DNA from: a virus
Virus record (IMG/VR): IMGVR_UViG_3300045988_107526
Coordinates: 1-64,000 of that record
Reading direction: 5' to 3' (one strand)
DNA: 64,000 nucleotides
The notes under the pieces were generated by a model. It worked only from the letters and a program-made list of their open reading frames with translations. It did no database searches and had not been told where the DNA came from. The position numbers were made by a program, and so were the translations under genes. The first letter of the stretch is position 1. Each line of letters starts with the position of its first letter. Positions 17,860-42,382 of this stretch are shown one piece after another.

Positions 17860-18057
17860 TTACTCCCCATACTTTGGCTCCTCATACACCAAGTTATGCT
17901 CATCTACGTAATCCTTGGCTTCTGAGTATGTATCAAAATCTACTGCGGTGGTATTTACTGCTGGGAATACCTCAGCATTGTCACCTTCCTCTGTGAGAGG
18001 GAACATCATCTTAGTTCCCTCATGTACTACCTTGAACTTTTTTGTTAACTTATTCAT
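17860..18057 (-). CDS. Hypothetical protein
   Basis: 65-aa acidic ORF at the end of the minus-strand tail-fibre unit. Confidence 0.45.
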   Translation of the reverse strand: MNKLTKKFKVVHEGTKMMFPLTEEGDNAEVFPAVNTTAVDFDTYSEAKDYVDEHNLVYEEPKYGE

Positions 18058-18098
18058 ATCTTGTTTCCTTTCTTTACATTAATATTGAACTTGGTACA

Positions 18099-18983
18099 TT
18101 ATGCAGGAGTGATTGAGACTGTGTAGTCTTTCTGCTGCAATGTTGTTATAGCTGCATCTGATGCTGATGTACGAGTTCCTTTGCATATAATTTTCTTAAA
18201 CCAACTTTGACTTTGTGTATTTGCAACACATGCAGATTGGTCATTTAACATCTTATCAATGTCTGTTCCAAAATCAGCATATTGGATAGCCATAATCTGA
18301 TGTGTTGTTGGGCGAGTTTGCTTCCATGTGCATGGAACAAAACTTGCAGAATCAAACCCCAATTGGCATCCATTTATTTGAGAAACTTCACCTTTAACAG
18401 TTGCAGGAGGAAAAAATGAATTAAATTTCGAGAATTTTTTTAATACAGAAATATCTCCATACATAGATGAGTTGCTCAAATCCAGCGTGTCTGAAAGACC
18501 ATTTACTGAGTTTATACAAGAAATATCTTGCTTTTTTGTTCTATTCAGTTTTATATATCCAAAAGAACTTTCTTTAGAGAATCTTGCAAAATCAAAATTA
18601 TCTTCGGAATTAAAACTAAATCTAGACTTTTCTGGTGAAGCAAATGCAAAACGGTTATAATCTCCTATTCCTTTGATATTTATAAATATTCTTAATTTGT
18701 AAATCGGAACTTTCAAACCTCCATTATTTACAACCTTAACATAAATACGGTCTCCCCAACTACCACCATTATATGCTGTTAATTCTTTAGTTGTTCCTAA
18801 GTTTTGTGCATAATTTTCATCTGTAAAGTACGCATCACCGAAGGTTCTAATAGTAGTGCCTTCGGTAAAACCTAGAGATACATCAATTTTTCCTTCTTGA
18901 GGAAGAATAACTAATTCTCCTATTTTTGGCAATGAATCATCATCAATAACTCCTTGCAATTTTGTTACTAAACATTTTTCCAT
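18099..18983 (-). CDS. Hypothetical protein downstream of the tail fibre (possible fibre accessory or receptor-binding protein)
   Basis: 294-aa AT-rich ORF starting 11 nt after the fibre gene stop. The function is inferred from position only. Confidence 0.6.
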   Translation of the reverse strand: MEKCLVTKLQGVIDDDSLPKIGELVILPQEGKIDVSLGFTEGTTIRTFGDAYFTDENYAQNLGTTKELTAYNGGSWGDRIYVKVVNNGGLKVPIYKLRIFINIKGIGDYNRFAFASPEKSRFSFNSEDNFDFARFSKESSFGYIKLNRTKKQDISCINSVNGLSDTLDLSNSSMYGDISVLKKFSKFNSFFPPATVKGEVSQINGCQLGFDSASFVPCTWKQTRPTTHQIMAIQYADFGTDIDKMLNDQSACVANTQSQSWFKKIICKGTRTSASDAAITTLQQKDYTVSITPA

Positions 18984-18994
18984 AATTATATATT

Positions 18995-21900
18995 TTAATT
19001 GTTATACAATAGTTTCATATTCTTATAATCATATAATAAATTACCAATATGCCTTCCGTGAGAATCTGAATGACAACCAACTCTGTGTAATGAAATATAT
19101 TTATGTTCTGTATCTACAGCAAATATATCAAATAAATCATCACTATAAGTATTTTCGATTCTATCAAAATTCCCAGTAAAGTCAAATTGTGGATTGTTAG
19201 GATTGCGACTACATCCAGCTGTATCTATTAAAATCTTTAATTGTTTCGGATAATTGCTAGATAAGCCTATTGCGTCTGAATGATGATGACCACACAACCA
19301 ACATATAAATTTACCTGCTCCATACTCATCGTCATGGTCTGCCATGAATGCTTCTACCAAATCAGAATATTCTTTATTATTATTATCACCATAGTAAGAA
19401 CTACTTGGTCTGTCTAGATTTGTAAAAGTACAATCAATAAGAGTGTCTATTTTTTGTGTATGAATCATACATATTACATTAAATCCTTTTTGTCTTGAAT
19501 CTTCCAATATGTTCTTGAACCAATCAGCTTGCTCTCCTTTATCGACTGTATCACCATCAGGGAATGATTCAGAAGTATAGCTTTCCGTGTGTCCATCTGC
19601 ATATTCTTTCTTGCAATATATAACATCTCTCCAATGATATACATCCAATGCTATTATTCTAATCTTTGCACTTTCATAATCTTTGTAGAAGTAGCATTTA
19701 TTCTCGACAGAGTTTATTTTTGTTTCTGAAAGATATGGTTTAATAAACTTATCATAGCATTCTTTAGAAGAATATGTTGGGACATTATAAGCTACTATGT
19801 ATTTTTTCACAATATTGCTTTGATTGTCTTCTTCCGATAATTCATATTCTCTGCTCCCTCCAAACACCTCGTGATTACCCAAAGCATTCAATATACAACC
19901 TGCACCATTTTCTTTCCAAAATGAGAAATTAGTTGTAAAGAAATTATTAGCATCACCTGTTGAGACAATATCATCAATGTATTCTTTATATTGGTTATAA
20001 TACTTTATTATGCGCTCCAAACGTCTAGATACGCTATGAAGGTCAGAGAAATAAAGTAAAGTAAATTTTGGCTTAATGTAAGGACCACTCTCTACTGTAT
20101 GGTATTTGAAATTAGCCAAAACTGGTTTTTCAGAGCGGATTGGATATAATGAAAGTATATCACCACATGCTATTTTATCAGACAATTCTTTGCTTCCAAC
20201 AACTGTAGATATAATATCTTTATTTGTTGGTATAGAATTGCTTTCAAACTTATTAATAACTCTAGTTCCATCCTTTCTAAGACCTTCAATTACTTTACCA
20301 TCTTTATCAGTCTTGACATATATGAACTCTGGGTTATCTACATATTCACTGGACATGCCTAAAGCCTTGATGTTACCACTAAACTCAGTATATCCATTAA
20401 GTACTCTAGTTCCATCCTTTCTAAGACCTTCAATTACTTTACCATCTGCATCAGTCTTGGCATATATGAACTCTGGGTTATCCTGCAAAGAGAAAACGTC
20501 AAGAAGTTCTTTGAGGTTGGTATCTATTGTACCTACATTTTCCTTCAATGACGCAAGGTCTGATTGAAGCTGAGATATAACTTGCTTCAAGGCATTGACT
20601 GCATGGATTTCACCAATAATTTGTCCGTCTCTTCTGATACCAAGGAGTATATGATTAGCAGCATCAAGCCAAACAGCGAAGAACTCTTCATTCTGCTCAA
20701 CGTGATACATTTCATTGAGAGGATAATATGGCTTGCCAGTTGCTCTGTAGAAACCAAAGAGTACCTTGTCTTCTGAATCTACTATTGCTTTAAGAAACTC
20801 CTCATTTTCGATTACTCTAAAGCATTCCTTTACTTCATTTTCAATTAGAGACTTGCCTTCTTCTTTATCTACCTTTGTATCTTGAAGATTTTTAATATCT
20901 TCTCCTAACTTGGTGCTAACACTATTGAGATTTGTAAGGATGCTTGTAAGTGTCTGAGTATTATCAATACTAGCAAAGAAGTCCTTCAACTCCTTCAATG
21001 TGTCAATAGCACTTGTAGTATCATCATCACCCAATATAGTGGTAACCTTATCTGACAAAAGAGTTACTTGTGACTGCAATCTGTCCTCTACTGCACTTGT
21101 CTTGCCAAATACAGGAGTACCATCCCACTGAATACCGAAGAGAAGTTTGTCTTCTACATCTACCTTTGCAAAGATGAACTCTTCATTCTGAATGTAGCGG
21201 AAAGGAGTTTCTACTACCAATCCTTCCTCATCTTTTATAGCTGTCTTTTCAACAATCTCATCTACTGCACTCTGTATGTTAATTGCAGTAAGTTTTGACT
21301 TCTCATTATTATAAGTAACAGCAGTAGCTTGACTTGCACCACCAGTAGCAGCTATAGACTTAATAGTTTCTTCTATCTGAGTGCTGCGAGTCTGCAATAA
21401 TGAAATATCTTCATCATTGGCAGTGATTTGTTGCTGCTTATCGTCAATCTGCGATTGCTTATCATCTAGCTGTTTCTGATGGTCTTTCAGTGTATCATCT
21501 ACGTTTTGAATGGTTTCTACCAAATTCTCAGGAAGACCAGTAGCTGCATTGATAGTCTGACGAAGCTCTGGGTCTAACTTCTCTACACCGATGGTGTTGT
21601 CTTTCAACTTGTCTTTGGTGATGGAGTTCTCTGCTAACTTCTCATTGGTGATACTGTCATCCTGTAGCTTCTCGTTGCTGACAGAACCATCAGCCATTTT
21701 TTCTGTAGTAACCGACTTATCGTCTAACTTCTCGGTCGTAACATTCAGGTCGGCAATCTTTTCCGTAGTAACACCAGAATCTTGAAGCTTCCCTGTTGTT
21801 ACATTTTGGTCTGCAATCTTCTGAGTAGTAACATTCCCGTCCGCAATCTTTGCTGTTGTTACAGAACAATCAGCCAGCTTTCGGGTGGTGATATTACCAT

Positions 21901-23461: not shown

Positions 23462-25168
23462 CTAGGCTGCAATAAGCTGACCTGAGAAGAGTTCCCATTT
23501 GCCGCCCTTGTAGATGTAAACATTCTCCTTCTCGTACTTGGTTGGACCACTACCCTCGTAATCGGCTGTCAAAGCGACAATCATACCCTCACGAGGAGTC
23601 TCAGGCAACTTGCTCATGGAGATAATGTTGTTGATGACACCCGATGCACCAAGTGTAGAAATCTTATTCTCTGGACCAACAAGAATGCTGTTGTAGCCAC
23701 GGAGAGCAACACAATCAGCCTCCCAGTGCATGTAACGCTTCGCCAGACGTGGATCGTAAGCATCCTTTGACAAATCGTTGGTGCGCTCCTTGCTCTTCTC
23801 CTTGACGTAGTGACGAGCACCCTTGAAGTCAGCACCAATCATGCAGTCTTCCAAATCCATGTAGTCGAGCGTGCTATCCCAAGCGAAGTTGAGAGTACCA
23901 TAGCTACACTTGAACTGGTTGAAGGTGATGTCGAACTCCTTAACTGTAGAGAACATGACATCGCGACCCTTAGGAAGTTCAATCTTCATCAGGCGCTCAA
24001 CAGCGTTCTTACCACAGAAGAGATACATGGTATCAGACTCAGCGAAGTCAGTGAACATCAGCTTAGCAATAGCGATAAGGTCAGCGAAGGTGTAGGTGTC
24101 GCCAATACCGTAAGAGTTGGTAAGCTGGTTGATGATACCCTCAGCAGAGTAAGCATATTCCTGAGCACCGTCCTTGGTTTCCATGAGGAACTTCAACTTA
24201 GTACCATAGAGGTAACTGCGCTCCTGACGAAGCAAGAACTTGGTGAGAGCATCTTCCTTCATGTCGGCAACGGTATGAGGCGCCTTCTTCTTGATTTTCT
24301 CGAACTCCTCGGTGAAGATGATAGAGAATGCACGCTTCTGCAAATAAACCTCCTCTGAGCGAGGCTGGTAGTTCTCAGGTGGAACGTTCATCTGACTCTC
24401 GGAGAGAATGGTAGAAGCACAGAGAATACGGCTGTTAGCTGGGATAGCTGGGCAGCCCATAGAGTCGAGGGTTTCACCAATAGTTCCTTCGGTCTCTGCC
24501 GGACCATTAAGCGCCTGCAAAGTAACCTCATCCTTCGTCTTATCAACAACCAAGAGATTCAATCGACCGCTAACCTTGGTCTTAGAACCACGCTCGTAAC
24601 CGGCAACAGAAGGAACGATAACTGTACTACCCTTGTAGAGAGGAAGCAGAGAACCCGAGAAGTTAGTCTTGGTAAGCTTGATAGTGCCACCAGCTTCGAC
24701 AGCTTCAATCTGCTTAGTAACAACACCATCGAGGGTATCACCACCGACACGGGCATGCTTCTTCTCGTAGCCATTACAAGGTACACTCTTTGTAATCTTA
24801 CGGATAATCTGGAGCAAAGGAGTTCGGAAAGGGCGATATTTCTCTACCTCACTATCCCAATCCTCCTCGGCAAGACCACCCTTGCGAATCTGGGTTGCAG
24901 AAGCCTGCGTACCGGTCAAGTCCTGACCTTCTACCTTACCGCCTGGAGCCAACCGGTCTGATTTATCAGGATCAACAGGCTCAGTTGCCGCATCAGCCTT
25001 GGTTGAAGGTTCGTGACCCTCATCGCCAATCTGAGTAGTTGGCTCTGCGGTATCAGCCATAGCGAGAACGCCGCCGCCAGTAACCACGGCAAGAAGCATC
25101 AGAATCATCTTCATGATGAACTGACCGCTCATAAAATTCTTAAAACAATCTTTCTTCATTTTATACAT
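23462..25168 (-). CDS. Putative major capsid protein (start uncertain)
   Basis: 568-aa ORF directly after an acidic scaffold-like gene. It has an ERSYLYG-type motif and a size compatible with HK97-fold capsid proteins. The N-terminal 36 aa are hydrophobic (MKMILMLLAVVTGGGVLAMA). An alternative start MADTAEP lies at 25060. Confidence 0.5.
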   Translation of the reverse strand: MYKMKKDCFKNFMSGQFIMKMILMLLAVVTGGGVLAMADTAEPTTQIGDEGHEPSTKADAATEPVDPDKSDRLAPGGKVEGQDLTGTQASATQIRKGGLAEEDWDSEVEKYRPFRTPLLQIIRKITKSVPCNGYEKKHARVGGDTLDGVVTKQIEAVEAGGTIKLTKTNFSGSLLPLYKGSTVIVPSVAGYERGSKTKVSGRLNLLVVDKTKDEVTLQALNGPAETEGTIGETLDSMGCPAIPANSRILCASTILSESQMNVPPENYQPRSEEVYLQKRAFSIIFTEEFEKIKKKAPHTVADMKEDALTKFLLRQERSYLYGTKLKFLMETKDGAQEYAYSAEGIINQLTNSYGIGDTYTFADLIAIAKLMFTDFAESDTMYLFCGKNAVERLMKIELPKGRDVMFSTVKEFDITFNQFKCSYGTLNFAWDSTLDYMDLEDCMIGADFKGARHYVKEKSKERTNDLSKDAYDPRLAKRYMHWEADCVALRGYNSILVGPENKISTLGASGVINNIISMSKLPETPREGMIVALTADYEGSGPTKYEKENVYIYKGGKWELFSGQLIAA

Positions 25169-25185
25169 ATATTTATGGATTAATA

Positions 25186-25977
25186 TTAATAAGTGAGACC
25201 TTCGAAGAATCCGCTCTTCGGCTCATTCTTCTTTTTGGCAGGCTTGTTTCCAGCGCCAGAACTAGAAAGAGAAGGAGGAATACCTTCGGTGCTAGAAGAG
25301 CGAACCTTATTCTGAATCTTCTCGTTTCTGGCTTGCATAGCCGCCTCTTCGCGCGCCGAAGTGATGTCGGAATCGTAGTTGTTGGCATTATGGAGCATCT
25401 TCCAAATATCATCTGAAATATCGCCACTCTCTACCTTGTCGTGAATCTCGTAAATCTGTGACCACATATCATGTGCTTCATCGGGATATAGATTCATCAG
25501 GCGTTCAAGCGACTTGCGCATGTTGGCAGTAACCTTCTCTGTAGCTTCGTTCTGTTCAGCCACGTCCTCATTGTGCTTGGCGAGAATCTCAGCGAGTTTC
25601 TTGCCGCCTTCAGGATCATCAAGCAACGTCTTTACATCAATGCCCAAGCGAGCCATCGCATCAAACGGATTGTCGTCCGGATTTTTCTCCATATCCATCG
25701 CCAGAGCAGCGAGCCACTTGTGCTTATCGAATACTTTAGACAACGCCTTACCGCTCTCCTCGTATCGTCCGAGCAAATCAGCATCATCATTCATTGCCGC
25801 ATAACGAGCTTCCTTGTCTTCGAAGTCTATGTCGGAGTGACGCTTGGAGAAACGCTTGGAGAAAGCTGTACGATTAGGGCGCTCATCTACAGACGTTTCA
25901 TCTGTAGCAGCCTCAGCAGGTGGAGCCTGTTGTGCGCCACCTTCCTCATTCATCTGTGCTAATTCTTCTTTTGTCAT
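25186..25977 (-). CDS. Putative scaffolding protein
   Basis: The track ORF runs to 26166. The ATG at 25975-25977 (MTKEELAQMNEEGG) is the plausible start. The protein is acidic and helical and lies immediately upstream of the capsid gene. Confidence 0.4.
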   Translation of the reverse strand: MTKEELAQMNEEGGAQQAPPAEAATDETSVDERPNRTAFSKRFSKRHSDIDFEDKEARYAAMNDDADLLGRYEESGKALSKVFDKHKWLAALAMDMEKNPDDNPFDAMARLGIDVKTLLDDPEGGKKLAEILAKHNEDVAEQNEATEKVTANMRKSLERLMNLYPDEAHDMWSQIYEIHDKVESGDISDDIWKMLHNANNYDSDITSAREEAAMQARNEKIQNKVRSSSTEGIPPSLSSSGAGNKPAKKKNEPKSGFFEGLTY

Positions 25978-30101: not shown

Positions 30102-30515
30102 ATGGAAGATTTTGAAATGGATGGATTTAAGTCTGTAAGGGAGATACAGAAAGAGAAGAAGGAGAAGGTAAAGAAACTTCTCCCTGCAAGAAAGAGTGCC
30201 CAAAAGGAATATATACGTGACTGGCTGGCAAGGAGCCAAGAGCAGTTTGAGGATTGTATGAACCAACTGGCAGAGTATGATCCTAAGACGTACGTCACCA
30301 TCTACAAAGACCTTACCAAGCACATGATACCAAAGCAGACAGAAGTAAGCGTTACCCACGGAATAGATGCAGACTTCAAGCAGCTTATGGCACTCGGTAT
30401 GACAACCGTAGAGGACGAAGACGAGGCAGACGTACTGGATATAAGCAAAGCACCCGAGATACAGGATGCAGATTTTGAGGAACTAAACGATTCAACGGAT
30501 GGCTCTAGTAACTGA
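30102..30515 (+). CDS. Hypothetical protein, possible small terminase subunit
   Basis: 137-aa ORF overlapping the TerL start by 17 nt. The call is by position only. Confidence 0.35.
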   Translation: MEDFEMDGFKSVREIQKEKKEKVKKLLPARKSAQKEYIRDWLARSQEQFEDCMNQLAEYDPKTYVTIYKDLTKHMIPKQTEVSVTHGIDADFKQLMALGMTTVEDEDEADVLDISKAPEIQDADFEELNDSTDGSSN

Positions 30516-32616
30516 ACAGGAAATAGATAATCTCGTAGCGGAAAATCAGGAGCGATACGATGAGATTTATGGCACCTACGACCCTATGACAGGAGAAGGT
30601 TGCTATAACTTTGAACATCGTGTGCTGATAGAACTATCCGATTTCTTCATTCCTAAGATGTGGGTTCCGAAGAAGACCGCCAAATCTGTTCTGTTCAGAG
30701 GTCTGAGAAAGATGGGCAGCCTAAAAGACTACATCAACTATGTGGCGCACCAGAAGGATGATGCCCAGCATTTCCAAATGCTTACCTTTGCCATCTGTAG
30801 GGTGAGGTTCATGGAAGACCCAGAGTTTGCCCTATTCGTGACCGATAAGATTGAGGATAAGAAGACCGGTAAGATGATTCCTTTCAAGCTGAACTATCCT
30901 CAAAGAAAGCTACTGAAGATTATGGAGGACCTGCGGAATGCCCACAAACCGGTGTTCGTGGTTATTCTGAAAGCACGTCAGTGGGGCGGCTCTACCCTAT
31001 CACAGCTTTACATCAAATGGATTCAGGACTATAGGCGCGATGGTTGGAATGCTATTGTGCTTGCCCAACAGAAGAATACTGCCAAGAAGATTAAGGCGAT
31101 GTACCGAAAAGCTTTGGAGCGTCAGCCGGGGTGGACCGTGGGGCATCCGGGCGCAAAACTCCAGTTCTCGCCATACGAAAATTCTCCTGACGATTTCCAA
31201 GTAACGGATGGTGTGAAGGCAATCAGACGAAGTACGCTGACGGTAGCATCCTTCGAGAACTTCGATTCTGTGCGTGGTAGCAACTTCCACTGTGCTCACT
31301 ATTCGGAGGTAGCCTATTGGAAGAAGACACCAGAGCATGATCCTGAGGGTGTGATTTCTTCTATATCCGGTGGTATCGACCCATTGGAAGACAACGTGGA
31401 GATATTCGAGAGTACCGGTAGAGGTAACTCTGGTTTCTTCTACGACAAGTGCCAGTTGGCAATGGACCCAAAGAATAATGATGCTTATTCGTTCCTCTTT
31501 ATTCCTTGTTTCTTCATCGAAAAGGATATGACTCCTGTAGAGAACAGAAGGGCATTTGCTAAGTGGCTTTTGCAGAACAGAGACCGAAGCACCTGTCCGA
31601 AGGGCTATCGTGAGACAGGAAAGTTCTTCTGGCGAATGTGGCAGAAGGGTGCTTGTTTTGAGGCGATAGAATGGTACAGAAACTACAGAAACAAGTTTAC
31701 CACACATGCGGCATGTGCTACCGAGGCTCCTATTGATGAGGAAGATGCGTTCAGAAACTCAGGTAGACTGGTATTCAATCCTTATTCTATAGACGACATG
31801 CAGGCTATGTATAAGCAAGACCCTAAGTTTACTGCCGACATCGTGGTGAACATCAGCGTGAAGGATGATAACACCATTCCGAACTCGAAGGTGAAACTGA
31901 GAGACGATGGCGATGGAGACTTGAAGATTTGGGCTGTTCCAAACTGCCTGCAAGTGGAGAACAGATATTTGGTGAGCGTGGACATTGGAGGTAAGAGTAC
32001 TACATCTGACTATACCGTTATGACCGTGATAGACCGATTCGGTATGATTCCTACGGTGAAGGGTAAACCAAAGGTGGTAGCGAGATACAGGGGACATGTT
32101 AGACATGATAAGCTGGCATGGATGGCTGCTGCCCTAGCCCATTATTATGATGATGCGCTGCTGGTAATAGAGAGTAATACGGCAGACCGAGAGAAGAACA
32201 ATAACACGGAGGGTGATCACTTTCTGACTATTCTGCAGGAGATAGCCGACTACTACGATAATCTGTATCAGAGAACGAGCAGTTCGGAGAATGTGGAAGA
32301 CAACGTACTGGCGAAATATGGTTTCCAAACCAACAAGCTGACGAAGCAACAGGTGATTGATAACTTGGAAGAGTTTATTGATGATAACCTGTATGAGGAG
32401 CCAGACAAGGAAATGTATCATGAGTTGCGCATCTATGAGCGACATGATGATGGAAGCTTGGGTAATATCGTGGGTAACGGAAACCATGATGATGTGGTAA
32501 TGAGTACCGGCATCGGTCTCTTTGTGAGTCTTACGGACATGGATAAGCCTAGCTGGAAGAAAGCGGAAAGAAGAAGCCGTGGTGGTGATGGTGTTCATAC
32601 GGCGGCGAAAATTTAG
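30499..32616 (+). CDS. terL: Terminase large subunit
   Basis: 705 aa. Walker-A-like VVILKARQWGGSTLSQ typical of TerL. C-terminal RNaseH-like nuclease signature LVSVDIGGKSTTSDYTVMTVIDR ... HDDVVMS. Confidence 0.85.
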   Translation: MALVTEQEIDNLVAENQERYDEIYGTYDPMTGEGCYNFEHRVLIELSDFFIPKMWVPKKTAKSVLFRGLRKMGSLKDYINYVAHQKDDAQHFQMLTFAICRVRFMEDPEFALFVTDKIEDKKTGKMIPFKLNYPQRKLLKIMEDLRNAHKPVFVVILKARQWGGSTLSQLYIKWIQDYRRDGWNAIVLAQQKNTAKKIKAMYRKALERQPGWTVGHPGAKLQFSPYENSPDDFQVTDGVKAIRRSTLTVASFENFDSVRGSNFHCAHYSEVAYWKKTPEHDPEGVISSISGGIDPLEDNVEIFESTGRGNSGFFYDKCQLAMDPKNNDAYSFLFIPCFFIEKDMTPVENRRAFAKWLLQNRDRSTCPKGYRETGKFFWRMWQKGACFEAIEWYRNYRNKFTTHAACATEAPIDEEDAFRNSGRLVFNPYSIDDMQAMYKQDPKFTADIVVNISVKDDNTIPNSKVKLRDDGDGDLKIWAVPNCLQVENRYLVSVDIGGKSTTSDYTVMTVIDRFGMIPTVKGKPKVVARYRGHVRHDKLAWMAAALAHYYDDALLVIESNTADREKNNNTEGDHFLTILQEIADYYDNLYQRTSSSENVEDNVLAKYGFQTNKLTKQQVIDNLEEFIDDNLYEEPDKEMYHELRIYERHDDGSLGNIVGNGNHDDVVMSTGIGLFVSLTDMDKPSWKKAERRSRGGDGVHTAAKI

Positions 32617-32654: not shown

Positions 32655-35402
32655 ATGGAAAGAAACTTAGAAAGACAAACTTTGAGCTTTAGCAAGGGCA
32701 TGACGAATGTTCCTAGCGACTTGCTTTCAGATGATTCTGAACTGCTAGAGAGTGACGGATTTATCTTTAAGGATGGAGAAATGAAGGCGGTGCAGAATCC
32801 TGTAAAGATTGGTGAGATTGCGGGGCAGAATATCATGTACGTTCACAAGATGGCAGACTATGAGAATATCATTGCTTATGATGGTACGGAAAACATATAC
32901 TGGTATACCAAAAATGATAGTGGAAATATCGTAAGCCCACCCGATGGAGTAACGAAAAGTTTCAATGTAGGAACCGTTTATGATGTAAAAAGTATAGGTA
33001 ATACTTTGGTTTGCGCCACCAGCGAAGGTCTTCACTATTTGCTTTTCAAAGGAAACAAATACAAGAATCTGGGTAAAGATTTGCCTCGTTTAGATTACGA
33101 TTTTACTTTTGAACGACCAACAGGTAACTACAGACAGGAAGAAAGCGGAAGAACTTTATGTAATGCCGAGAATGCTGTTGAGACAAAAAAAGGAGAGAGC
33201 TATTTCAACCCCTTAAACCATAAGTTTATTCAGGCTGGCGGCGTAAAACCAGATGGTAGTGAAACCGATTCATATACAATGTTCAGCGTAAAGATATCAA
33301 CAGACTCAAAATATGAGAATGAGTTTCAAGAAACCATCCAGGGGCATGTAGCGCAAGCCATAAACTGGGTTAAGAGCAAGAACATGTTTGCCTTCCCATT
33401 TTTTCTAAGATGCGCTTTCCGTATGTTTGATGGCTCATACTGCAGAATAACCACGCCTATAATCTGCTATCCTACAGTGAATAAAAACTGCATGTTCAGT
33501 GCTGCTTTTTTTGACGATATATTCAAAACATATTATGATCTCCATGGGATGGATAGTGCACAAAGTATGTTCTACTTTATTGAATACAGAGAGCTACTGT
33601 TTCGGTTTGAGTCAATATCAAGTGACTGGAGTGATATAATCAAGGAGATTGTGGTTTTTGCGTCAGACCAAGTTGTGCCATTCTATATAGATAAAGGTTG
33701 GCATTTTGAAAGCCCGAATGGTATACATAATAAGTATGCTTATGCCAATTTCGGTTATAAAACTTACGATGAAAAGCTCTTTAATTACGACGTGGATGGC
33801 TTTACGGGTACATACAACTCATATACCAGATCGGTACATGACGAGCTTCTTCCGAAATACAAGAGTGATAATCAGATTATATCCGAATTACTCTCAAAAA
33901 CAGTTTTTTACAAATTATTCACAGTTCCAATAAGTGGCGGTTATATTGGTGGTAGCAATTATCATTACACCGTTACCGGCAAGGGTGGAGAACCGGCATT
34001 TATCAGTGATGGGACATTGGAGAACCTTCTGGAGCAGGAGCAACTGAATGTGGATGATTACTACGGATGGGCATCTTTGAGTGCAGAATCTATATACAAT
34101 TATAATGGCAGACTGAATCTTATTGGAACAACACGAACTCCTTTTGCAGGTTTCGCCAAATTTGTAGGAAAAGACAGGTTTGAGGATGACGCATTTCTTA
34201 TGTTTACGCACATCGTTTCAGATAAATGTGATACATGGGTTGAAAGAAGTGTTACTGCAGATAAAGATTTTCTGCAAGGATGGCTGTTTTACCCAGACCC
34301 GAATGCTACGGAGGTTATTTTTCACCATGCAGGGAAATATATCAGAATTAATCTAAATGCACATCCTAGATTAAATGGCGCTTATACGTTTCCTGTACTT
34401 CCACCAAATAAGCCGCAGAAGTTTACAGAAATCAGTGAAAGCGAATTGCTAAAGATTGTAACAAGCGTAAATGATAAAGAAGATTTGAATTCTCAGATTT
34501 TCACTTCTGTAGTCAACAACCCATTTGTATTTGAGGCATCTGGAGATAATACGGTTGGAACAGGAAAGATACTCGGAATTATTGCCAACACAGAGGCGGT
34601 AAGTCAAGGTCAGTTTGGTCAATATCCATTGATGGTATTTACGGACGAAGGTATCTACGGCTTGTCGGTTAACTCAGAAGGTCTCTATAGCAGAGCCTAT
34701 CCAATATCAAGAGAGGTATGTAATGAGGATTCTCCACTGGTGCCGACGGACAGGCTTGTGTTCTTTGCTTCAAAGAAAGGACTGATGGCGGCAATCGGTG
34801 GAAGCGTAGCCTGTATGAGCGAGCAGATGAGAGGAAGAGTACCGAGGAACTTTGCGACCTTCGGTGAAGGCAAATTCATGGATTTTCTGAAAGGATGCCT
34901 TATCGCCTACGATTACAGAGACTCCATATTGAGAATATTCAGCAAGGGGAAATCATACCAATACATATATAATATGGTGGATAAGACCTTCTCAATGGTG
35001 AATAGCGGCATAGAGGCACAGGCTGTAGTGAATGATTATCCGGATAATCTGATACAAGATACTAACGGAAACGTCTATTCACTTACGTCAAAGCCGGACA
35101 TCAACGAAGATACAGAAAGCTATAGCGGCTCATTTACTACCAGACCTTTAAAGCTTGGCGGCAGCATGACGTTGAAATCGCTGAGAGCGGTGAAGCATCT
35201 GTTTGATTCGGACGAAGGTACGGTAGGACTGGAGATATACGGAAGCAACGACTGCAAGCACTGGTGCAAGCTGCCAAGCTTGGCTGGTAAGCCTTGGAAG
35301 TACTTTACTTTTAAGTATACGCTGCAGAACTTCAAGGCTGCTGATGCCTTTGCTGGGAGTATAGTGGAGGTACAAAGCAGACGAGAAGACAAAATGAGAT
35401 AA
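32655..35402 (+). CDS. Large hypothetical virion-module protein
   Basis: 915-aa ORF following TerL. No motif recognised. Confidence 0.65.
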   Translation: MERNLERQTLSFSKGMTNVPSDLLSDDSELLESDGFIFKDGEMKAVQNPVKIGEIAGQNIMYVHKMADYENIIAYDGTENIYWYTKNDSGNIVSPPDGVTKSFNVGTVYDVKSIGNTLVCATSEGLHYLLFKGNKYKNLGKDLPRLDYDFTFERPTGNYRQEESGRTLCNAENAVETKKGESYFNPLNHKFIQAGGVKPDGSETDSYTMFSVKISTDSKYENEFQETIQGHVAQAINWVKSKNMFAFPFFLRCAFRMFDGSYCRITTPIICYPTVNKNCMFSAAFFDDIFKTYYDLHGMDSAQSMFYFIEYRELLFRFESISSDWSDIIKEIVVFASDQVVPFYIDKGWHFESPNGIHNKYAYANFGYKTYDEKLFNYDVDGFTGTYNSYTRSVHDELLPKYKSDNQIISELLSKTVFYKLFTVPISGGYIGGSNYHYTVTGKGGEPAFISDGTLENLLEQEQLNVDDYYGWASLSAESIYNYNGRLNLIGTTRTPFAGFAKFVGKDRFEDDAFLMFTHIVSDKCDTWVERSVTADKDFLQGWLFYPDPNATEVIFHHAGKYIRINLNAHPRLNGAYTFPVLPPNKPQKFTEISESELLKIVTSVNDKEDLNSQIFTSVVNNPFVFEASGDNTVGTGKILGIIANTEAVSQGQFGQYPLMVFTDEGIYGLSVNSEGLYSRAYPISREVCNEDSPLVPTDRLVFFASKKGLMAAIGGSVACMSEQMRGRVPRNFATFGEGKFMDFLKGCLIAYDYRDSILRIFSKGKSYQYIYNMVDKTFSMVNSGIEAQAVVNDYPDNLIQDTNGNVYSLTSKPDINEDTESYSGSFTTRPLKLGGSMTLKSLRAVKHLFDSDEGTVGLEIYGSNDCKHWCKLPSLAGKPWKYFTFKYTLQNFKAADAFAGSIVEVQSRREDKMR

Positions 35403-35434: not shown

Positions 35435-35470
35435 AAAAAGGCGGCTGCTCATCACGAGTGGTCGCCTTTA
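35435..35470. terminator. Bidirectional terminator between convergent genes
   Basis: AAGGCG...CGCCTT stem flanked by AAAAA on the left and TTTAAAA on the right. The minus-strand reading is followed by TTTTT. Confidence 0.55.
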
Positions 35471-35520: not shown

Positions 35521-36003
35521 TTATCTGTTTTTGATATTATTTATGAAATACGATACGATGTAGCCTAATACGAAGCAGTAAAAATGCAGGAGTCCGTTGA
35601 CATTCGGCACGGCCATGGTGCAAATAATGAACGGCATCGCTTTCTTTAATGCCTCTTTCCATCGTCCTGTCCTACCCCACATTGAACCAAAGGATGCAAA
35701 TAAGAAACCGGAAAGCCCCATTGTAGGCTGACTAACATACATGGGCAGCAGACTAGCGACAGAGGCAACAGCCAGAGAAGTGACTGGTTTCATATCGTTC
35801 TTTATCTGCCAAAGCACCAGAAGGTTTACGGCAAGATGAAATCCGTTGACATGGAAGAAGCTATACAGGATATGGTTCTGCCAAGGACAACCAGGATAGA
35901 AACCGACGTGGCAAGTACACAGAACGAGGCAGATGATGCTAAGCACCAGCTTTGTTCGAAAGTTTCTTCTTACGAATGTCCATTTCTCTGTAATTTTTTC
36001 CAT
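35521..36003 (-). CDS. Rhomboid-like intramembrane serine protease (compact, about 160 aa, 6 predicted TM)
   Basis: NGFHLAVNLL (H-x3-N), MGLSGFLFASFG (GxSG) and GLLHFYCFVLG (H-x7-G), in the order and TM context of the rhomboid catalytic motifs. The start is taken at MEKITEKW (36003) because the longer track ORF overlaps the upstream gene. Confidence 0.55.
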   Translation of the reverse strand: MEKITEKWTFVRRNFRTKLVLSIICLVLCTCHVGFYPGCPWQNHILYSFFHVNGFHLAVNLLVLWQIKNDMKPVTSLAVASVASLLPMYVSQPTMGLSGFLFASFGSMWGRTGRWKEALKKAMPFIICTMAVPNVNGLLHFYCFVLGYIVSYFINNIKNR

Positions 36004-36394
36004 ACTTCTTATAGTAAGCGAAAATAAACTTGAGATTACTCGGCTGGATAAAGAACTCTGGTGCAGGCTCAGAAACAAGGAACTGGCAGATAAACCATAA
36101 AGATTTTCCCACAAACTCCTTTCGCTGCGTCATTTCGTTCATCCTGTTGAACAGCGTATAGTACAACTTCTGCCGAATCGGCTTCATGCTATCCACCTTT
36201 GAGAAATCGCCGACTGCCATTCTGCGGAGTATATCCCAAGCTCTTTTGGGAGAAACGTAGTATCTAGGAGCAGGAGAATGGACTACCTTTTCCCAAGCCT
36301 CCTGTTGGGAATGGCAATTAGGAGCTATCTCCCGATACGCCTTCATCAGATCATCCCTCTGTCTGTCAATCAATTCGTAATTTGCTCTTGCCAT
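35939..36394 (-). CDS. Hypothetical protein
   Basis: 151-aa ORF, the first gene of a short leftward unit. Confidence 0.55.
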   Translation of the reverse strand: MARANYELIDRQRDDLMKAYREIAPNCHSQQEAWEKVVHSPAPRYYVSPKRAWDILRRMAVGDFSKVDSMKPIRQKLYYTLFNRMNEMTQRKEFVGKSLWFICQFLVSEPAPEFFIQPSNLKFIFAYYKKYGKNYREMDIRKKKLSNKAGA

Positions 36395-36517
36395 ATAAAT
36401 GCTGCATTAAGATGTTGCAAATATACATATTATTTAGAATATAACCAAATAAGCGCATAAAGATTTAAATAAGTTTAATATTAGACTGGTTTTCATGGTG
36501 TTACGAAAGAAAAAGTT

Positions 36518-36525
36518 TAATTTTG
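36518..36525 (+). promoter_or_regulatory. -7 box TAATTTTG
   Basis: Matches TAnnTTTG, about 70 nt upstream of the ATG at 36596. Confidence 0.45.
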
Positions 36526-37547: not shown

Positions 37548-37991
37548 ATGGCAGAGATAGTACATACATTTTTACAAGAGCACCTGTACAGATCGGCATT
37601 GGTTATTGCCATCTGCATGGGTGCTCTTATCATTTCTATGGGCGTGGACCTGTTCTTCGGAATCAAGAAAGCGAAAGAGAACGGACTGGCTACGACAAGT
37701 ACAGGATTCAAGAAGACTTGCGACAAGGCGAGGAAATACTTCTCTCCCTTCATGGTGACGGTCTGCATAGACCTGATAGCCTGTACGGTTCTCCCCTTCC
37801 CTGTCTTCTCTATGATTTGGGCAGGCTATTGCGTGTTCTGTGAATTTGTAAGCGTAAGGGAAAAGAGCTGGCAGAAGGCCGAGATACGGAAGCAGGAGAA
37901 GACTGTAAGTATTCTTCTGGAGAACAAAGAAGACTTGGCTAGGGCTTTTGTTGAGATTATGAAGGAACAGGGAAAGGAGGAGAAGAAATGA
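37548..37991 (+). CDS. Holin
   Basis: 147 aa with TM helices, MGVDLFFGIKKAKENG...TSTGFKKT resembling the LL-H/TcdE holin family, and a charged C-terminal tail. It overlaps the endolysin start by 4 nt. Confidence 0.65.
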   Translation: MAEIVHTFLQEHLYRSALVIAICMGALIISMGVDLFFGIKKAKENGLATTSTGFKKTCDKARKYFSPFMVTVCIDLIACTVLPFPVFSMIWAGYCVFCEFVSVREKSWQKAEIRKQEKTVSILLENKEDLARAFVEIMKEQGKEEKK

Positions 37992-38431
37992 GACTGATTA
38001 AGAGAATTTTTGTTCATTGTTCTGCCTCTTCTCAGAAATGGGGCGTGAAGGAACTTTGGGATGAGTTTAAGCGCAAAGGCTGGAATAACCCCGGCTACCA
38101 TTATGTAATTACTGCTGATGGTGGGATTCACCAGATGCTTCCGGTAGAAATGGTTAGCAACGGCGTGAAGGGATATAATGCTACGGCTATCAATGTGGCT
38201 TATGTTGGCGGCATCAACAAGAAGGGAAAGGCGGTAGACAACAGAACAGAGGAACAGAAGAAATCGCTTATCACTCTGCTCACTCAGCTAAAGAAGAAAT
38301 ATCCGAATGCTGAAATCTTAGGGCACAGAGATATTTCTCCAGACAAGAACCATAACGGCGTAGTGGATCCTTGGGAGAGAATCAAGGAGTGCCCTTGTTT
38401 TGACGCTAAAGTTGAATACAAAGAGATATAG
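37988..38431 (+). CDS. N-acetylmuramoyl-L-alanine amidase endolysin (T7-lysozyme/PGRP type)
   Basis: IFVHCSAS, GYHYVITADGG, ILGHRDISPD and CPCFD match the zinc-amidase motifs of the Amidase_2 family. Confidence 0.85.
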   Translation: MRLIKRIFVHCSASSQKWGVKELWDEFKRKGWNNPGYHYVITADGGIHQMLPVEMVSNGVKGYNATAINVAYVGGINKKGKAVDNRTEEQKKSLITLLTQLKKKYPNAEILGHRDISPDKNHNGVVDPWERIKECPCFDAKVEYKEI

Positions 38432-38434
38432 CTT

Positions 38435-38875
38435 ATGAAATGGTACGACATAAGGTTTTGGAAATGGGCTTGCATCGGCTTGGTGGTTGGAATTATCCTA
38501 TTAGCGTTTACTGGATGCAAGACGAAGGAGTATATCAAAGTTCCTTCTGTTAGAACTGAATACGTATGCAGGACAGATACTTTTGCTAAGTTTGATAGTA
38601 TCTACATGAAGGATTCGGTGTATGTTTTTCAGAAGGGTGATACGGTTTTCCATAACAAGGTGGTTTATCGGGACCGGTATCATAATATATATAATGTGAA
38701 GACGGACACAATCATCAAGACGGATTCAGTAACCGTGCCTTATCCTATAGAGCGGCAACTGACGAAGAACGAGCAAAGGCTGATGTCGCTGGGCAGATGC
38801 TATATCGCATTTCTGTTCATACTGGCGGCTTGCGCGATAGGGTTTACTCTCTGGTACAGAAACAAAAAGTGCTAG
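38435..38875 (+). CDS. Putative unimolecular spanin
   Basis: N-terminal signal with lipobox-like LLAFTGC and a C-terminal TM helix CYIAFLFILAACAIGFTLWY. It lies directly after the endolysin. Confidence 0.45.
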   Translation: MKWYDIRFWKWACIGLVVGIILLAFTGCKTKEYIKVPSVRTEYVCRTDTFAKFDSIYMKDSVYVFQKGDTVFHNKVVYRDRYHNIYNVKTDTIIKTDSVTVPYPIERQLTKNEQRLMSLGRCYIAFLFILAACAIGFTLWYRNKKC

Positions 38876-39948: not shown

Positions 39949-40082
39949 ACGCTATTTATTTTTCAGTTCAACCTATTCGATAAGAATGTTACAATCATCC
40001 AATTCTATACAATCATGCATCCAATCTTGGATAAATGCGTGATGCGAACTATCTCTTTTTCTTTACTCATTGCTTATCCTAC

Positions 40083-40331
40083 TTAGTAATTGATAATCTT
40101 CTGTGTCTTGCGAACCTTGGCAAAGAAATCGGTGATTTCTTGTGAAGTTGCTTCTCTACAGCAGTCTCCTTTCATCCAATTACCAATACCATTGGATTTC
40201 CGAATCATTCCATCAGAATCCTCACCAATTATCACACCATATCCATCAGCGTTAACAAAACCATCATGGATAAACACTTTGCCATCACCATCAACTAAGA
40301 TAGCACCTGCTTTAAATTCACTTAATCTCAT
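40083..40331 (-). CDS. Hypothetical protein
   Basis: 82-aa ORF. Confidence 0.5.
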   Translation of the reverse strand: MRLSEFKAGAILVDGDGKVFIHDGFVNADGYGVIIGEDSDGMIRKSNGIGNWMKGDCCREATSQEITDFFAKVRKTQKIINY

Positions 40332-40748
40332 ATTCTATTCTTTTTTTACCCTCTCCCTTTTGCAGGAGAGGGTGGTTAGTTATTAAAAGCTCATCAAGCT
40401 ATTTTTTTGAATACTTCTTTATTCATAACATATCTGTTTAAGGTTAAAGGTAAACTAAATCAAACATTCCGGCTTGATCTCCAACTTTAAATATGATTTT
40501 GTTTGAATGGTTTATACTTCTGATAAACTCAACTTCAGCATCATCTGGCTGATTTCCAATTATTTCCTTTAAATGTTTTATTTTCATACTCTATCTATTT
40601 ATGCCCGAAGGCGTTAAACATCAAATCTTTCTGTCTTGATGAGTTATTATCTCACACTCATTTCCTCTACGATTCCAATAACCGCATTGGTAACATTTTC
40701 TTCCGTAGAAAGGACAATGATAATTTACTTGTGTTGCTACACTCATAC

Positions 40749-41186
40749 CTACACATCCATTTCTGAGTTAAGTCCTAGACCGAAGAGAAGGTGCTGCAAC
40801 TGATGAACATACTTAATGTATGCAATTGGTTTACATACATTATTGTCAGTAAACGGATATACATCAAACTCATCACCGATACCTTTTTCTATGTAGATAG
40901 GAAAATATCCATATTCTTCAATATCGGGTTTTGTATATACTAGATGACTATTCTTTACTCCTCTGCTCATCAATTCTTCCTTCCATCCATTCTTCTCTAG
41001 AATCTCAAGAGTGAGATTAATAGGTAATATATCTCTGTCTGCAACAAAAGCAGTTTTTGTACTATTAGTTGAAATCAAAGCATAACATATCTTGTTATGA
41101 AGAAAGTTTTCTTCAAAATTAACAATAGTATAAGTATTGGTTGCAAACTTTACCAAATCTCCTGGAATGTATTCTAATTTATCCAT
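40749..41186 (-). CDS. Hypothetical protein
   Basis: 145-aa AT-rich ORF. Confidence 0.55.
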   Translation of the reverse strand: MDKLEYIPGDLVKFATNTYTIVNFEENFLHNKICYALISTNSTKTAFVADRDILPINLTLEILEKNGWKEELMSRGVKNSHLVYTKPDIEEYGYFPIYIEKGIGDEFDVYPFTDNNVCKPIAYIKYVHQLQHLLFGLGLNSEMDV

Positions 41187-41552
41187 ACGCTTTACTTTTT
41201 AATTACTATCTAGTTCTGACATAAAAGTTACTATAAAACCACAAATAGTAATGAATGCAAATATGCCAATAACATCTTCCTTAAACAGAAAGTAACTGTA
41301 CACTTCTAACACTCCTATCAATAAATAAGTGATACTTACAAGAAGCAGTTTAAATACTTTCATATTATTATTCAATTAAAACGCAATTCTATAGTACTTT
41401 CCTTTCAGAGAAGGTTTCTTACTGATAATGAACTTCTCTAAATCTTCAAAATCTATTGGGAAGAGCGCACAATATTTATACTTTAATGTGCAGATGAATC
41501 TTCCGTCGAGCATAACATCAAAAATAAAAGTCTTCATATCTATCCCTCCTCA

Positions 41553-41999
41553 TTATTTTTTAAAGATTTCATCAAGAATACTTCTGAAATTTGGATTATC
41601 AATCACAGCTTGTGCATCTGCTTCTCTTCGAAAATAGACGCAGCCATAATTTGATTCTAATCTAGAATCCACAAACAAACGTTCAGGTCTGTCAGACTTT
41701 ATGATAAAGTATTTATTTTCTCCTATATTACCCCAGTCTGGCTTCCAATCACCGTTATAATAACTAGCGATGTTCATGAGCTTGTTTATTGCATCTAGCT
41801 TATTCTGATTCTTTTTCACTTCTGAATAATCAACTTTCGCAATTATAGAAGACCTTACATCATTAAAATTGATGAATTTCTTCTTGAACATTATAACACC
41901 AGTCTTCAAATCGCTGTTCTCAACATCTATCTCCATTCCTCTAGGAATATTAATAGTTAACTTATTACCTATGATTTCTACGATTTCCATACTTATCAC
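41553..41999 (-). CDS. Hypothetical protein
   Basis: 148-aa ORF with a 4-nt overlap with the upstream gene. Confidence 0.55.
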   Translation of the reverse strand: MISMEIVEIIGNKLTINIPRGMEIDVENSDLKTGVIMFKKKFINFNDVRSSIIAKVDYSEVKKNQNKLDAINKLMNIASYYNGDWKPDWGNIGENKYFIIKSDRPERLFVDSRLESNYGCVYFRREADAQAVIDNPNFRSILDEIFKK

Positions 42000-42382
42000 T
42001 CCTCTTTAGTTTCATACTCCTGTTGCAGATTCTTGACCTCGCTAACGAACTTACTGACATCAATATCACAATCAATTACCTCTTGATGGTTTTTGATAGC
42101 GTCTTCTATCAGATGGGTGCATTCTTCGGTAAAACCACAGATACGATCACCTTCGATGGTGTAGAGATACTTGTGTGTGTTATAGTAAGCACACTGGCAG
42201 AGAGATAATCCCTCTGAGTTGAGGCGGTCCCGTACATCGGGATTGTTGATGCGAAGGACCACCATCTTACATCTACTAGAATAGTACTTGCGGTATTTGA
42301 TGCGGTCTGCAACAATGATTGCTATAGCTACCAACCACAGGATAGATAGCACAATGATAACATCTATTTGAATTGTATTCAT
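41996..42382 (-). CDS. Hypothetical protein with an N-terminal TM anchor
   Basis: 128 aa. N-terminus IQIDVIIVLSILWLVAIAIIVA. Confidence 0.55.
   Translation of the reverse strand: MNTIQIDVIIVLSILWLVAIAIIVADRIKYRKYYSSRCKMVVLRINNPDVRDRLNSEGLSLCQCAYYNTHKYLYTIEGDRICGFTEECTHLIEDAIKNHQEVIDCDIDVSKFVSEVKNLQQEYETKEE

Follow-up and report, generated by a model that had tools for sequence, protein, structure and literature searches.

Does a phage of gut Bacteroidales encode a working intramembrane protease and, if so, what would that enzyme cut? The question is raised by a short gene in the window, by which we mean the whole 64,000-nt stretch of DNA analysed here (positions 1 to 64,000 of IMG/VR virus record IMGVR_UViG_3300045988_107526, one strand). 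The gene, at 35521..36003 on the minus strand, was described in a first-pass annotation of the bare sequence as a minimal rhomboid-like protease next to the lysis genes. We find that its 160-aa product is very likely a true rhomboid and that, with a soluble partner protein, it most probably belongs to the head and packaging genes of the phage. The best overall explanation, to which we assign a probability of about 0.45, is that the rhomboid is a core gene that works with this partner and processes a membrane-anchor-like segment at the N-terminus of the major capsid protein (MCP).

A predicted minimal rhomboid protease

The gene and its motifs are located as follows.

35521..36003, minus strand: mini-rhomboid gene, taken from the open reading frame (ORF) list; 160 aa, six predicted transmembrane (TM) helices, N-in/C-in
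35824..35853, minus strand: TM2 motif H51-x4-H56-x3-N60, which contains FHLAVN (residues 55-60); predicted oxyanion-hole/active-site support residues
35707..35718, minus strand: G96-L-S98-G99, the GxSG motif with the predicted catalytic Ser at the start of TM4; codons GGG CTT TCC GGT
35584..35586, minus strand: His140 (CAT codon), predicted catalytic His in TM6, with G147 after it

A longer version of the ORF starts at a TTG codon and extends to 36114; the ATG start is favoured, since at least 90% of 46 homologues share M1. The three signature elements on which the first-pass annotation relied, FHLAVN, GLSGFLFA (residues 96-103, with Ser98) and LLHFYCFVLG (residues 138-147, with His140), are all present in that order and inside predicted TM helices. 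Lysine and arginine are confined to the loops at residues 1-17, 67-73, 111-121 and 155-160 (5, 2, 5 and 2 residues, respectively), and none occurs in the loops adjoining S98 and H140. Since the charged residues fall in alternate loops only, the protein is predicted to have six TM helices in an N-in/C-in arrangement that places Ser98 and His140 close to the periplasm, as in GlpG.

Profile searches recover the rhomboid family. Scored alone, the 160-aa protein reaches 21.0 bits (E 4e-4) against the Pfam Rhomboid model PF01694, whose cutoff is 22.6. Homology searches found 85 homologues, mostly of 156-168 aa, and PF01694 is matched by 41 of the 46 that were aligned (E<=0.01, best 1.5e-8). When the family profile was compared with the PDB, GlpG accounted for 16 of the 17 matches at E<=10 (best E 3.5e-3), the remaining one being a G-protein-coupled receptor (E 0.12); a single-sequence search of the PDB with the window protein returned noise only (an oligosaccharyltransferase, E 0.037). 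The HMMER profile alignment equates the TM2 motif of the family with GlpG H145/H150/N154 and its GxSG motif with the GLSG of GlpG (S201). This alignment ends before TM6, so H140 is equated with GlpG H254 by its position and by the fold match. No match to the window rhomboid was found in NCBIfam, nor did megablast of the 6-kb region against cultured phages return one.

Structure prediction points to the same fold. An alignment-based AlphaFold2 (AF2) model of the protein has a pLDDT of 88.6 and a pTM of 0.83, and the top 33 Foldseek matches in the PDB are all GlpG of Escherichia coli or Haemophilus influenzae (probability 1.0, TM-score 0.57-0.64), followed by iRhom1/2. In BFVD, the top matches are 155-160 aa 'GlpG-like' proteins of phages from gut metagenome-assembled genomes (MAGs) (TM-score 0.76), and rhomboids of giant viruses are also recovered.

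HMMER, run exhaustively against 1.84 billion cluster representatives, returned 803 clusters, 307 of them at E<=1e-10, with a median length of 164 aa among the 148 readable of the best 150 clusters. Conservation was measured in 139 sequences, namely 138 full-length representatives of clusters at 50% identity or less and the query. S98, H140, H56 and G96 are conserved in 139 of 139, H51 and N60 in 138 and G147 in 124. The HxxxxHxxxN motif, Ser98 and His140 are invariant in the 46 close homologues as well, and because the same residues are retained at both distances the motifs cannot be put down to chance. Neither of the outcomes that the first-pass annotation had named as fatal to it, profile searches that miss the rhomboid family and catalytic residues that vary among homologues, was observed. 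Values of dN/dS against the window gene (median 0.15, maximum 0.32) indicate purifying selection.

Two of its loops are cut down to a few residues. The WR motif of the L1 loop, which is typical of rhomboids and is not catalytic, is absent: TM1 and TM2 are linked by ~9 residues, W41 occurs in 23 of the 139 sequences with no conserved Arg adjacent to it, and position 44 is His (82 of 139) or Arg (35). The L5 cap is ~6 residues long. Together, conservation, profiles and the structural model make it very likely that the gene encodes a true, catalytically competent, minimal rhomboid-fold intramembrane serine protease, much as the first-pass annotation had proposed. Its further statement that rhomboids are rare in phages applies to cultured phages, where the gene was found in 3 of 50,697 records and PHROGs has no family for it, and fails for this gut clade, in which more than 350 IMG/VR contigs carry it.

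Genomic context of the rhomboid gene

The genes around the rhomboid gene in the window are the following.

30499..32616, plus strand: large terminase (TerL), 705 aa, phrog_24361; 35% identical to BS-TP4 gp7
32655..35402, plus strand: 915-aa structural protein, convergent with the rhomboid gene, phrog_32516; homologue of BS-TP4 gp26, 'putative structural protein'
35939..36394, minus strand: up151, 151 aa, soluble, all-alpha, with an internal PAPxxY/F repeat; phrog_27246, a family of unknown function
37548-37991, plus strand: holin-like gene
37988-38431, plus strand: Amidase_2 endolysin (Pfam E 3.8e-14)
38435-38875, plus strand: spanin-like protein, 146 aa, with an N-terminal lipoprotein-type signal (LLAFTGC) and a C-terminal TM helix followed by RNKKC

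The first-pass annotation set the rhomboid beside holin, amidase and spanin genes. In the window this is accurate, in that the lysis cassette lies ~1.5 kb from the rhomboid gene, on the opposite strand, with the gene of the partner up151 and three small ORFs in between. The gene order of the window lineage begins on one strand with a helix-turn-helix gene, the spanin-like, amidase and holin-like genes and the three small ORFs, continues with the divergent up151 and rhomboid genes and then with the convergent 915-aa and TerL genes, and is kept in ~80 close relatives. The adjacency is specific to this lineage. In the cultured temperate Bacteroides phages BS-TP4, BKO1-TP3 and BF1-TP2, which are distant relatives with a TerL 35% identical to that of the window, the order is up151-like gene, rhomboid and TerL, all co-directional with overlapping frames, and the capsid and scaffold genes point away from this group on its other flank; the endolysin gene lies 16 kb from the rhomboid gene in BS-TP4 and ~14 kb from it in BF1-TP2.

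Context was surveyed at 80 loci centred on TerL relatives (37-99% identity), with an HMM scan for rhomboid and up151. The rhomboid is present at every TerL locus with enough flanking sequence, with the sole exception of one locus that is uninformative because it is a degraded prophage remnant (L199, IMGVR_UViG_3300028591_008308). What is left there is TerL, part of a portal gene and a structural gene of 981 aa; rhomboid, up151 and MCP are missing, and the flanks hold an insertion sequence (IS) transposase-like gene, a gene for a transporter-like membrane protein and a large gene of 811 aa whose product has an N-terminus resembling a signal peptide. In every lineage examined the rhomboid gene lies within a few kb of TerL, and in the divergent lineages it lies directly upstream of TerL, usually overlapping it. 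Four very divergent representatives of the rhomboid family are found in the same module.

Only ~11 proteins of the window have detectable homologues in BS-TP4: the giant protein described below, the MCP, the scaffold-like protein, the portal, a 202-aa protein, TerL, the 915-aa protein, the rhomboid, up151, and two or three replication/recombination proteins. The two phages have no holin or spanin homologue in common. The spanin-like gp20 of BS-TP4 is anchored by an N-terminal TM helix, whereas the spanin-like protein of the window is anchored C-terminally, and in another relative (L125) the endolysin is of the GH19 type and not an Amidase_2. The rhomboid is thus universal and linked to TerL, to its partner and to the capsid genes while the lysis proteins vary, which argues for a core head and packaging gene and against a lysis accessory gene or moron. 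Neither conserved linkage to holin, endolysin and spanin genes nor co-orientation with them was found, and the lysis role that the first-pass annotation had derived from position is not supported by the comparison: what is conserved is the linkage to TerL, up151 and the capsid and scaffold genes. We consider it highly probable that the rhomboid, with its partner, is a core gene of the morphogenesis (head/packaging) module across the clade. The arrangement in which the MCP and scaffold genes diverge from a partner-rhomboid-TerL run with overlapping frames is widespread and probably ancestral.

The 915-aa gene next to the rhomboid gene is mosaic and exchangeable: in many phages with 97-99% identity in TerL, holin and up151, its product is only 58-62% identical, and in others the figure is 90-92%. 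It may encode a receptor-binding or tail protein. The interval between these two genes also varies. Several close relatives (L048, L050-L052) carry an insertion of ~700 bp between the end of the rhomboid gene (~8456) and the 915-aa gene (~9179), and in these the rhomboid is divergent in its last 8 residues; another locus (L126) has an extra 153-aa ORF there. The protein encoded at 38435-38875 has the architecture of a unimolecular spanin and no match in Pfam, PHROGs or NCBIfam. A moron or lysogenic-conversion gene had been suggested by the opposite orientation and by a possible promoter and terminator of its own, and was set aside, the gene being universal in the clade and overlapping TerL elsewhere.

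A soluble partner protein

The 3' end of the up151 gene overlaps the start of the rhomboid gene by 65 nt, an ORF overlap that is usual in relatives, and the sequence indicates that the two are translationally coupled in the window. The protein is homologous to BS-TP4 gp9 (25% identity, E 3e-15). Its AF2 model is confident (pLDDT 91); comparison of the model with the PDB gave no fold match (best E 2.2), and profile searches gave no meaningful match. In one relative (P0313, 292 aa, L212 1980-2858) an up151-like domain is fused in frame to the N-terminus of a mini-rhomboid. This fusion is present on 9 contigs, and hhalign identifies the up151-like part with a probability of 96% (E 1.5e-9).

Because up151 occurs naturally fused to the N-terminus of the rhomboid, the system can be read as a two-part enzyme with a cytoplasmic accessory domain; and because that N-terminus is predicted to be cytoplasmic, up151 is best read as a detached accessory domain, adaptor or regulator on the cytoplasmic side. 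The cytosolic domains of GlpG or YqgP follow a comparable logic. The position upstream of TerL had made up151 a candidate small terminase, an assignment set aside in view of the P0313 fusion to the rhomboid and of the absence of detectable similarity to small terminases.

A membrane-anchor-like segment in the major capsid protein

The capsid genes of the window lie on the minus strand.

23462..25168, minus strand: MCP (Pfam SU10_MCP, E 6e-9, 36.2 bits, cutoff 24.1, residues 91-456)
25055..25168, minus strand: MCP residues 1-38, candidate rhomboid substrate; basic N-terminus, hydrophobic helix, TGGG and LAMA (MYKMKKDCFKNFMSGQFIMKMILMLLAVVTGGGVLAMA)
25186..25977, minus strand: scaffold-like coiled-coil protein, 263 aa, adjoining the MCP gene; homologue of BS-TP4 gp10, phrog_22323

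The MCP, whose homologues include BS-TP4 gp11 and BF1-TP2 gp56, begins with MYKMKKDCFKNFMSGQFIMKMILMLLAVVTGGGVLAMADTAEP in the window and with MKKTMSFFCRITLMILAFVTGASSGVMMAEASN in BS-TP4. After residue 38 a disordered, acidic, G/P/T-rich linker runs to about residue 90. Across the clade the extension consists of a basic tip, a hydrophobic helix of ~18 residues with a helix-breaking (T/S)GG, a small-Met-Ala motif and an acidic linker of 50-60 aa. It is found in every lineage examined and in all 115 full-length MCP clusters, 110 of which have the motif. The MCP body, at 22-26% identity, is less well conserved than this extension. Apart from the MCP, no conserved core protein has a TM-like N-terminal segment and no protein in the window combines a TM helix with (T/S)GG. 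Capsid proteins very rarely begin with an anchor-like segment of this kind. Rhomboid substrates typically contain small residues and glycines that destabilise the helix.

The adjoining scaffold-like gene is syntenic in other lineages (261-287 aa in L211, L214 and L215). E. coli phage SU10, the founder of the MCP family, lacks both the MCP extension and a rhomboid, and the protein encoded upstream of its TerL is hydrophilic. Domain scans of the head-module genes matched no protease or prohead protease family.

From this co-occurrence and from the position of the rhomboid in the head module, we tentatively propose that the MCP anchor is a substrate of the rhomboid, while holding that the proposal has less than an even chance of being right. 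The anchor would target the capsid precursor to the inner membrane, where the rhomboid, with up151, would clip it inside or beside the bilayer; clipping would remove the anchor or free the MCP for head assembly or maturation. The MCP would then be a membrane-anchored precursor and the two-part mini-rhomboid an intramembrane head-maturation protease in a phage with no recognisable prohead protease, a full mechanism that we regard as doubtful. A weaker second candidate substrate is the giant protein, which has a conserved, moderately hydrophobic segment ~340 residues from its C-terminus, followed by an acidic run.

Weighing the capsid reading against other roles

Several points weigh against processing of the MCP anchor by a rhomboid of the head module. 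Scored by itself, the window rhomboid falls slightly under the Pfam gathering threshold, and in the window lineage its operon is inverted relative to TerL. The co-occurrence of rhomboid and MCP anchor is seen within one clade and could reflect shared ancestry, and SU10 is the only negative control for it; the MCP homology searches returned in-clade MCPs only, and tblastn the three Bacteroides phages only. The MCP N-terminus also resembles an ordinary Sec signal peptide: a basic n-region is followed by an h-region and an A-x-A-like c-region, and the same site could be cut by signal peptidase I. By the positive-inside rule the anchor would be N-in/C-out; the capsid domain would therefore be exported to the wrong side of the membrane, and the segment would have a type II orientation, which most characterised rhomboids disfavour. 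Finally, translation of the MCP could start internally at the conserved Met.

Other roles fit parts of the evidence. As a lysis regulator, the rhomboid would cleave a holin, antiholin or spanin and so time lysis, for example by clipping the C-terminal TM anchor of the 38435-38875 protein. The proximity of the cassette (~1.5 kb in the window lineage and in L120 and L125) fits such a role, as does the spanin-like protein itself, whose C-terminal TM helix followed by basic residues would be N-out/C-in, the orientation that rhomboids prefer; and in one locus (L121) a DUF6549 protein with an N-terminal TM helix and a coiled coil is encoded directly upstream of the rhomboid. We nevertheless judge it quite improbable, since the distant relatives keep neither the adjacency nor a shared holin or spanin, BS-TP4 lacks a C-terminally anchored spanin, endolysin types vary among lineages, and the rhomboid belongs to a different operon on the opposite strand; a protease so strictly conserved should have a conserved substrate. 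A conserved host target would also explain why phages of related hosts conserve the enzyme so strictly. Here the rhomboid would act late in infection on an inner-membrane protein conserved in Bacteroidales, which could be a receptor, an anti-sigma factor, part of a transport, secretion or defence system, or a superinfection route, with takeover, superinfection exclusion or the prevention of progeny loss as the outcome. Characterised bacterial rhomboids do cut cellular membrane proteins, as AarA cuts TatA, YqgP cuts MgtE and GlpG acts on orphan subunits, and the phage enzyme evolves faster than its neighbours (65% identity where the holin is 96% and TerL 80% identical), as would a protein at the host interface. 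However, neither the rhomboid nor up151 nor any of the small ORFs nearby matches a defence system in PADLOC, and no anti-defence match was found; an overlapping, coupled gene between the partner and TerL is more typical of morphogenesis than of takeover or exclusion; and a host target leaves the clade-wide MCP anchor unexplained. We consider this role unlikely, though to be taken seriously.

Two further possibilities are less likely. In a housekeeping role, host signal peptidase would remove the MCP anchor or other phage signal peptides and the rhomboid would degrade leftover TM fragments or mis-inserted phage proteins. The signal-peptidase-like small-x-small site in the MCP N-terminus agrees with such clearance, and GlpG-type rhomboids have been implicated in membrane-protein quality control, but the indispensability of the gene and its dedicated partner protein are hard to account for in this way, and we rate it a poor prospect. 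An inactive, iRhom- or derlin-like fold, acting as a scaffold in the membrane or as a receptor there to which the terminase or procapsid binds, would suit the loss of the L1 loop with its WR motif and the adjoining terminase gene. Pseudoproteases lose catalytic residues, whereas the Ser, the His, both TM2 His and the Asn are kept here in 138-139 of 139 divergent clusters, the pattern of active enzymes; with the catalytic residues invariant we dropped this explanation as very improbable. Processing of the MCP anchor by the rhomboid and its partner remains our preferred, though tentative, account.

Comparison with known rhomboids and head proteases

The closest structural reference is GlpG of E. 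coli and H. influenzae (PDB 2IC8, 2NR9; PF01694, MEROPS S54), which has the same six-helix, N-in/C-in fold and likewise places the GxSG Ser at the start of TM4, the His in TM6 with a Gly seven residues on, and HxxxxHxxxN in TM2. GlpG has a core of ~180 aa and a 90-aa cytoplasmic domain, whereas the mini-rhomboid totals ~160 aa, lacks the membrane-embedded L1 hairpin, takes its cytoplasmic domain from a separate gene and is encoded in a phage head and packaging module. The 'GlpG-like' proteins of gut phages (Podoviridae sp. ctzXp5 A0A8S5TE03 and ctsfx1 A0A8S5QAB7; fold TM-score 0.76) belong to the same family. Together with BS-TP4 gp8, BF1-TP2 gp59 and the close homologue P0002, they span 155-172 aa; the neighbourhood matches in the cultured phages, and the annotations are automatic only.

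Rhombosortase (TIGR03902), which removes GlyGly-CTERM anchors, is similarly small (a 154-position model). The proposed MCP substrate resembles its substrates in that a single TM anchor carries GG where it meets the periplasm and a basic tip on the cytoplasmic side; it differs in that the MCP anchor is N-terminal and the chain runs in the opposite direction. BS-TP4 gp8 scores 27 bits against TIGR03902, where the cutoff is 84, and the window rhomboid has no match, which places neither protein among the rhombosortases. No GlyGly-CTERM signal (C-terminal GG-TM-basic) was found in the proteins of the window.

Cellular rhomboids offer two functional parallels. Providencia stuartii AarA activates TatA by trimming a short N-terminal extension beside its TM helix, and Bacillus subtilis YqgP (GluP) has a cytosolic N-terminal domain that serves as a regulator or adaptor. 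The arrangement of up151 and of the P0313 fusion resembles that of the YqgP cytosolic domain, with no sequence relation beyond the rhomboid core. AarA and YqgP differ from the phage protein in having seven TM helices or extra domains and in being cellular.

Under the proposed mechanism, the rhomboid would do the job of the prohead proteases, such as HK97 gp4 (S78) and T4 gp21 (U9), of herpesvirus assemblin-like fold, which are likewise encoded in the head module: the removal of an N-terminal MCP extension of ~40-90 aa. Prohead proteases are, by contrast, soluble, become enclosed in the procapsid and have a fold unrelated to that of rhomboids, and we know of no precedent for an intramembrane protease as a head-maturation enzyme. 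Giant viruses (Megaviridae, Aureococcus anophagefferens virus, Yasminevirus) also encode the rhomboid fold; their proteins are longer (207-394 aa), come from viruses of eukaryotes and match the model less well (E 4e-3 to 7e-2).

The phage and its relatives

The window genome encodes a 4357-aa giant protein, an SU10-type MCP and adaptor, a P22-like portal, a large terminase and the lysis cassette; no tRNA genes were found in it. Relatives comprise 321 IMG/VR matches, on contigs of ~75 kb, and only 3 matches among GTDB species-representative genomes, all on short MAG contigs and two of them from Segatella. A phage contig binned in a 'Bacilli bacterium' MAG (L083, CAAGQJ010000009.1) is probably a binning error, given the Segatella MAGs among the other matches. 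The clade consists of phages of Bacteroidales (Segatella/Prevotella/Bacteroides) with a P22-like portal and an SU10-like capsid. An assignment to the 'Quimbyviridae' was set aside, the paper on that group containing neither a mention of a rhomboid nor a matching description.

The protein has already been annotated automatically as a rhomboid in a few records. GenBank names BS-TP4 gp8 'rhomboid domain-containing protein' and BF1-TP2 gp59 'rhomboid family intramembrane serine protease', and JGI/IMG names P0002, which is 94% identical to the window rhomboid, 'membrane associated rhomboid family serine protease'; BKO1-TP3 gp50, also a rhomboid, is misnamed 'glycoside hydrolase' (PQ571269.1 37361-37879). 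The large terminases of the cultured relatives are misnamed 'tail spike protein' (PQ571277.1 20340-22436; PQ571263.1 40117-42144). The paper that describes the cultured phages does not mention the rhomboid, and the literature searched contains no paper on phage-encoded rhomboids.

Further features of the window concern the possible regulation of the locus and the giant gene.

35435..35469, strand not assigned: hairpin GGCGGC ... GTCGCC with flanking A- and T-runs, located where the rhomboid and 915-aa genes converge
36418..36425, minus strand: Bacteroidetes-type -7 box candidate TATATTTG, ~24 nt upstream of the up151 ATG
36518-36525, plus strand: second -7 box candidate TAATTTTG, facing the divergent operon
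46-13119, plus strand: giant ORF, 4357 aa
13158-14534, minus strand: 458-aa protein with two strongly hydrophobic N-terminal helices, adjoining the giant gene; no family match

The hairpin could be a bidirectional terminator, a possible but weak call from sequence; the terminator scan missed it because its loop exceeds 8 nt. Both -7 box candidates lie inside the 200-bp divergent intergenic region and are weak matches, to the consensus TAnnTTTG only; a sigma-70 promoter scan of the region was uninformative. In relatives of the giant protein (5268-5391 aa), annotated as DarB-like antirestriction proteins, the domains LPD13, AAA_34, Helicase_C_4 and LPD38 are present. Two low-GC stretches (18001-20000 and 40001-42000; GC 0.32 against ~0.42-0.47 elsewhere) show negative GC skew and may be recently acquired or otherwise different segments.

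Implications

Rhomboids are ubiquitous and, to our knowledge, few natural substrates of the bacterial enzymes have been described and none of the phage-encoded enzymes has been studied. What is new here is a minimal, L1-less, two-part rhomboid that is fixed in the morphogenesis module of a large clade of phages prevalent in the human gut. The comparison corrects database names, among them the 'glycoside hydrolase' of BKO1-TP3 and the 'tail spike' terminases. For the rhomboid field it adds a natural enzyme of minimal size, for which the candidate substrates are few, in three cultured phages that are open to genetics. For phage biology it poses a puzzle, in that an intramembrane protease is kept beside the terminase in phages whose capsid protein starts with a signal-anchor-like segment. 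If the rhomboid and the capsid anchor are unconnected, the protease is probably directed, as a conserved tool, at the host envelope; if the link is true, it would mean membrane-coupled capsid assembly, a new class of prohead protease and a new mode of capsid maturation.

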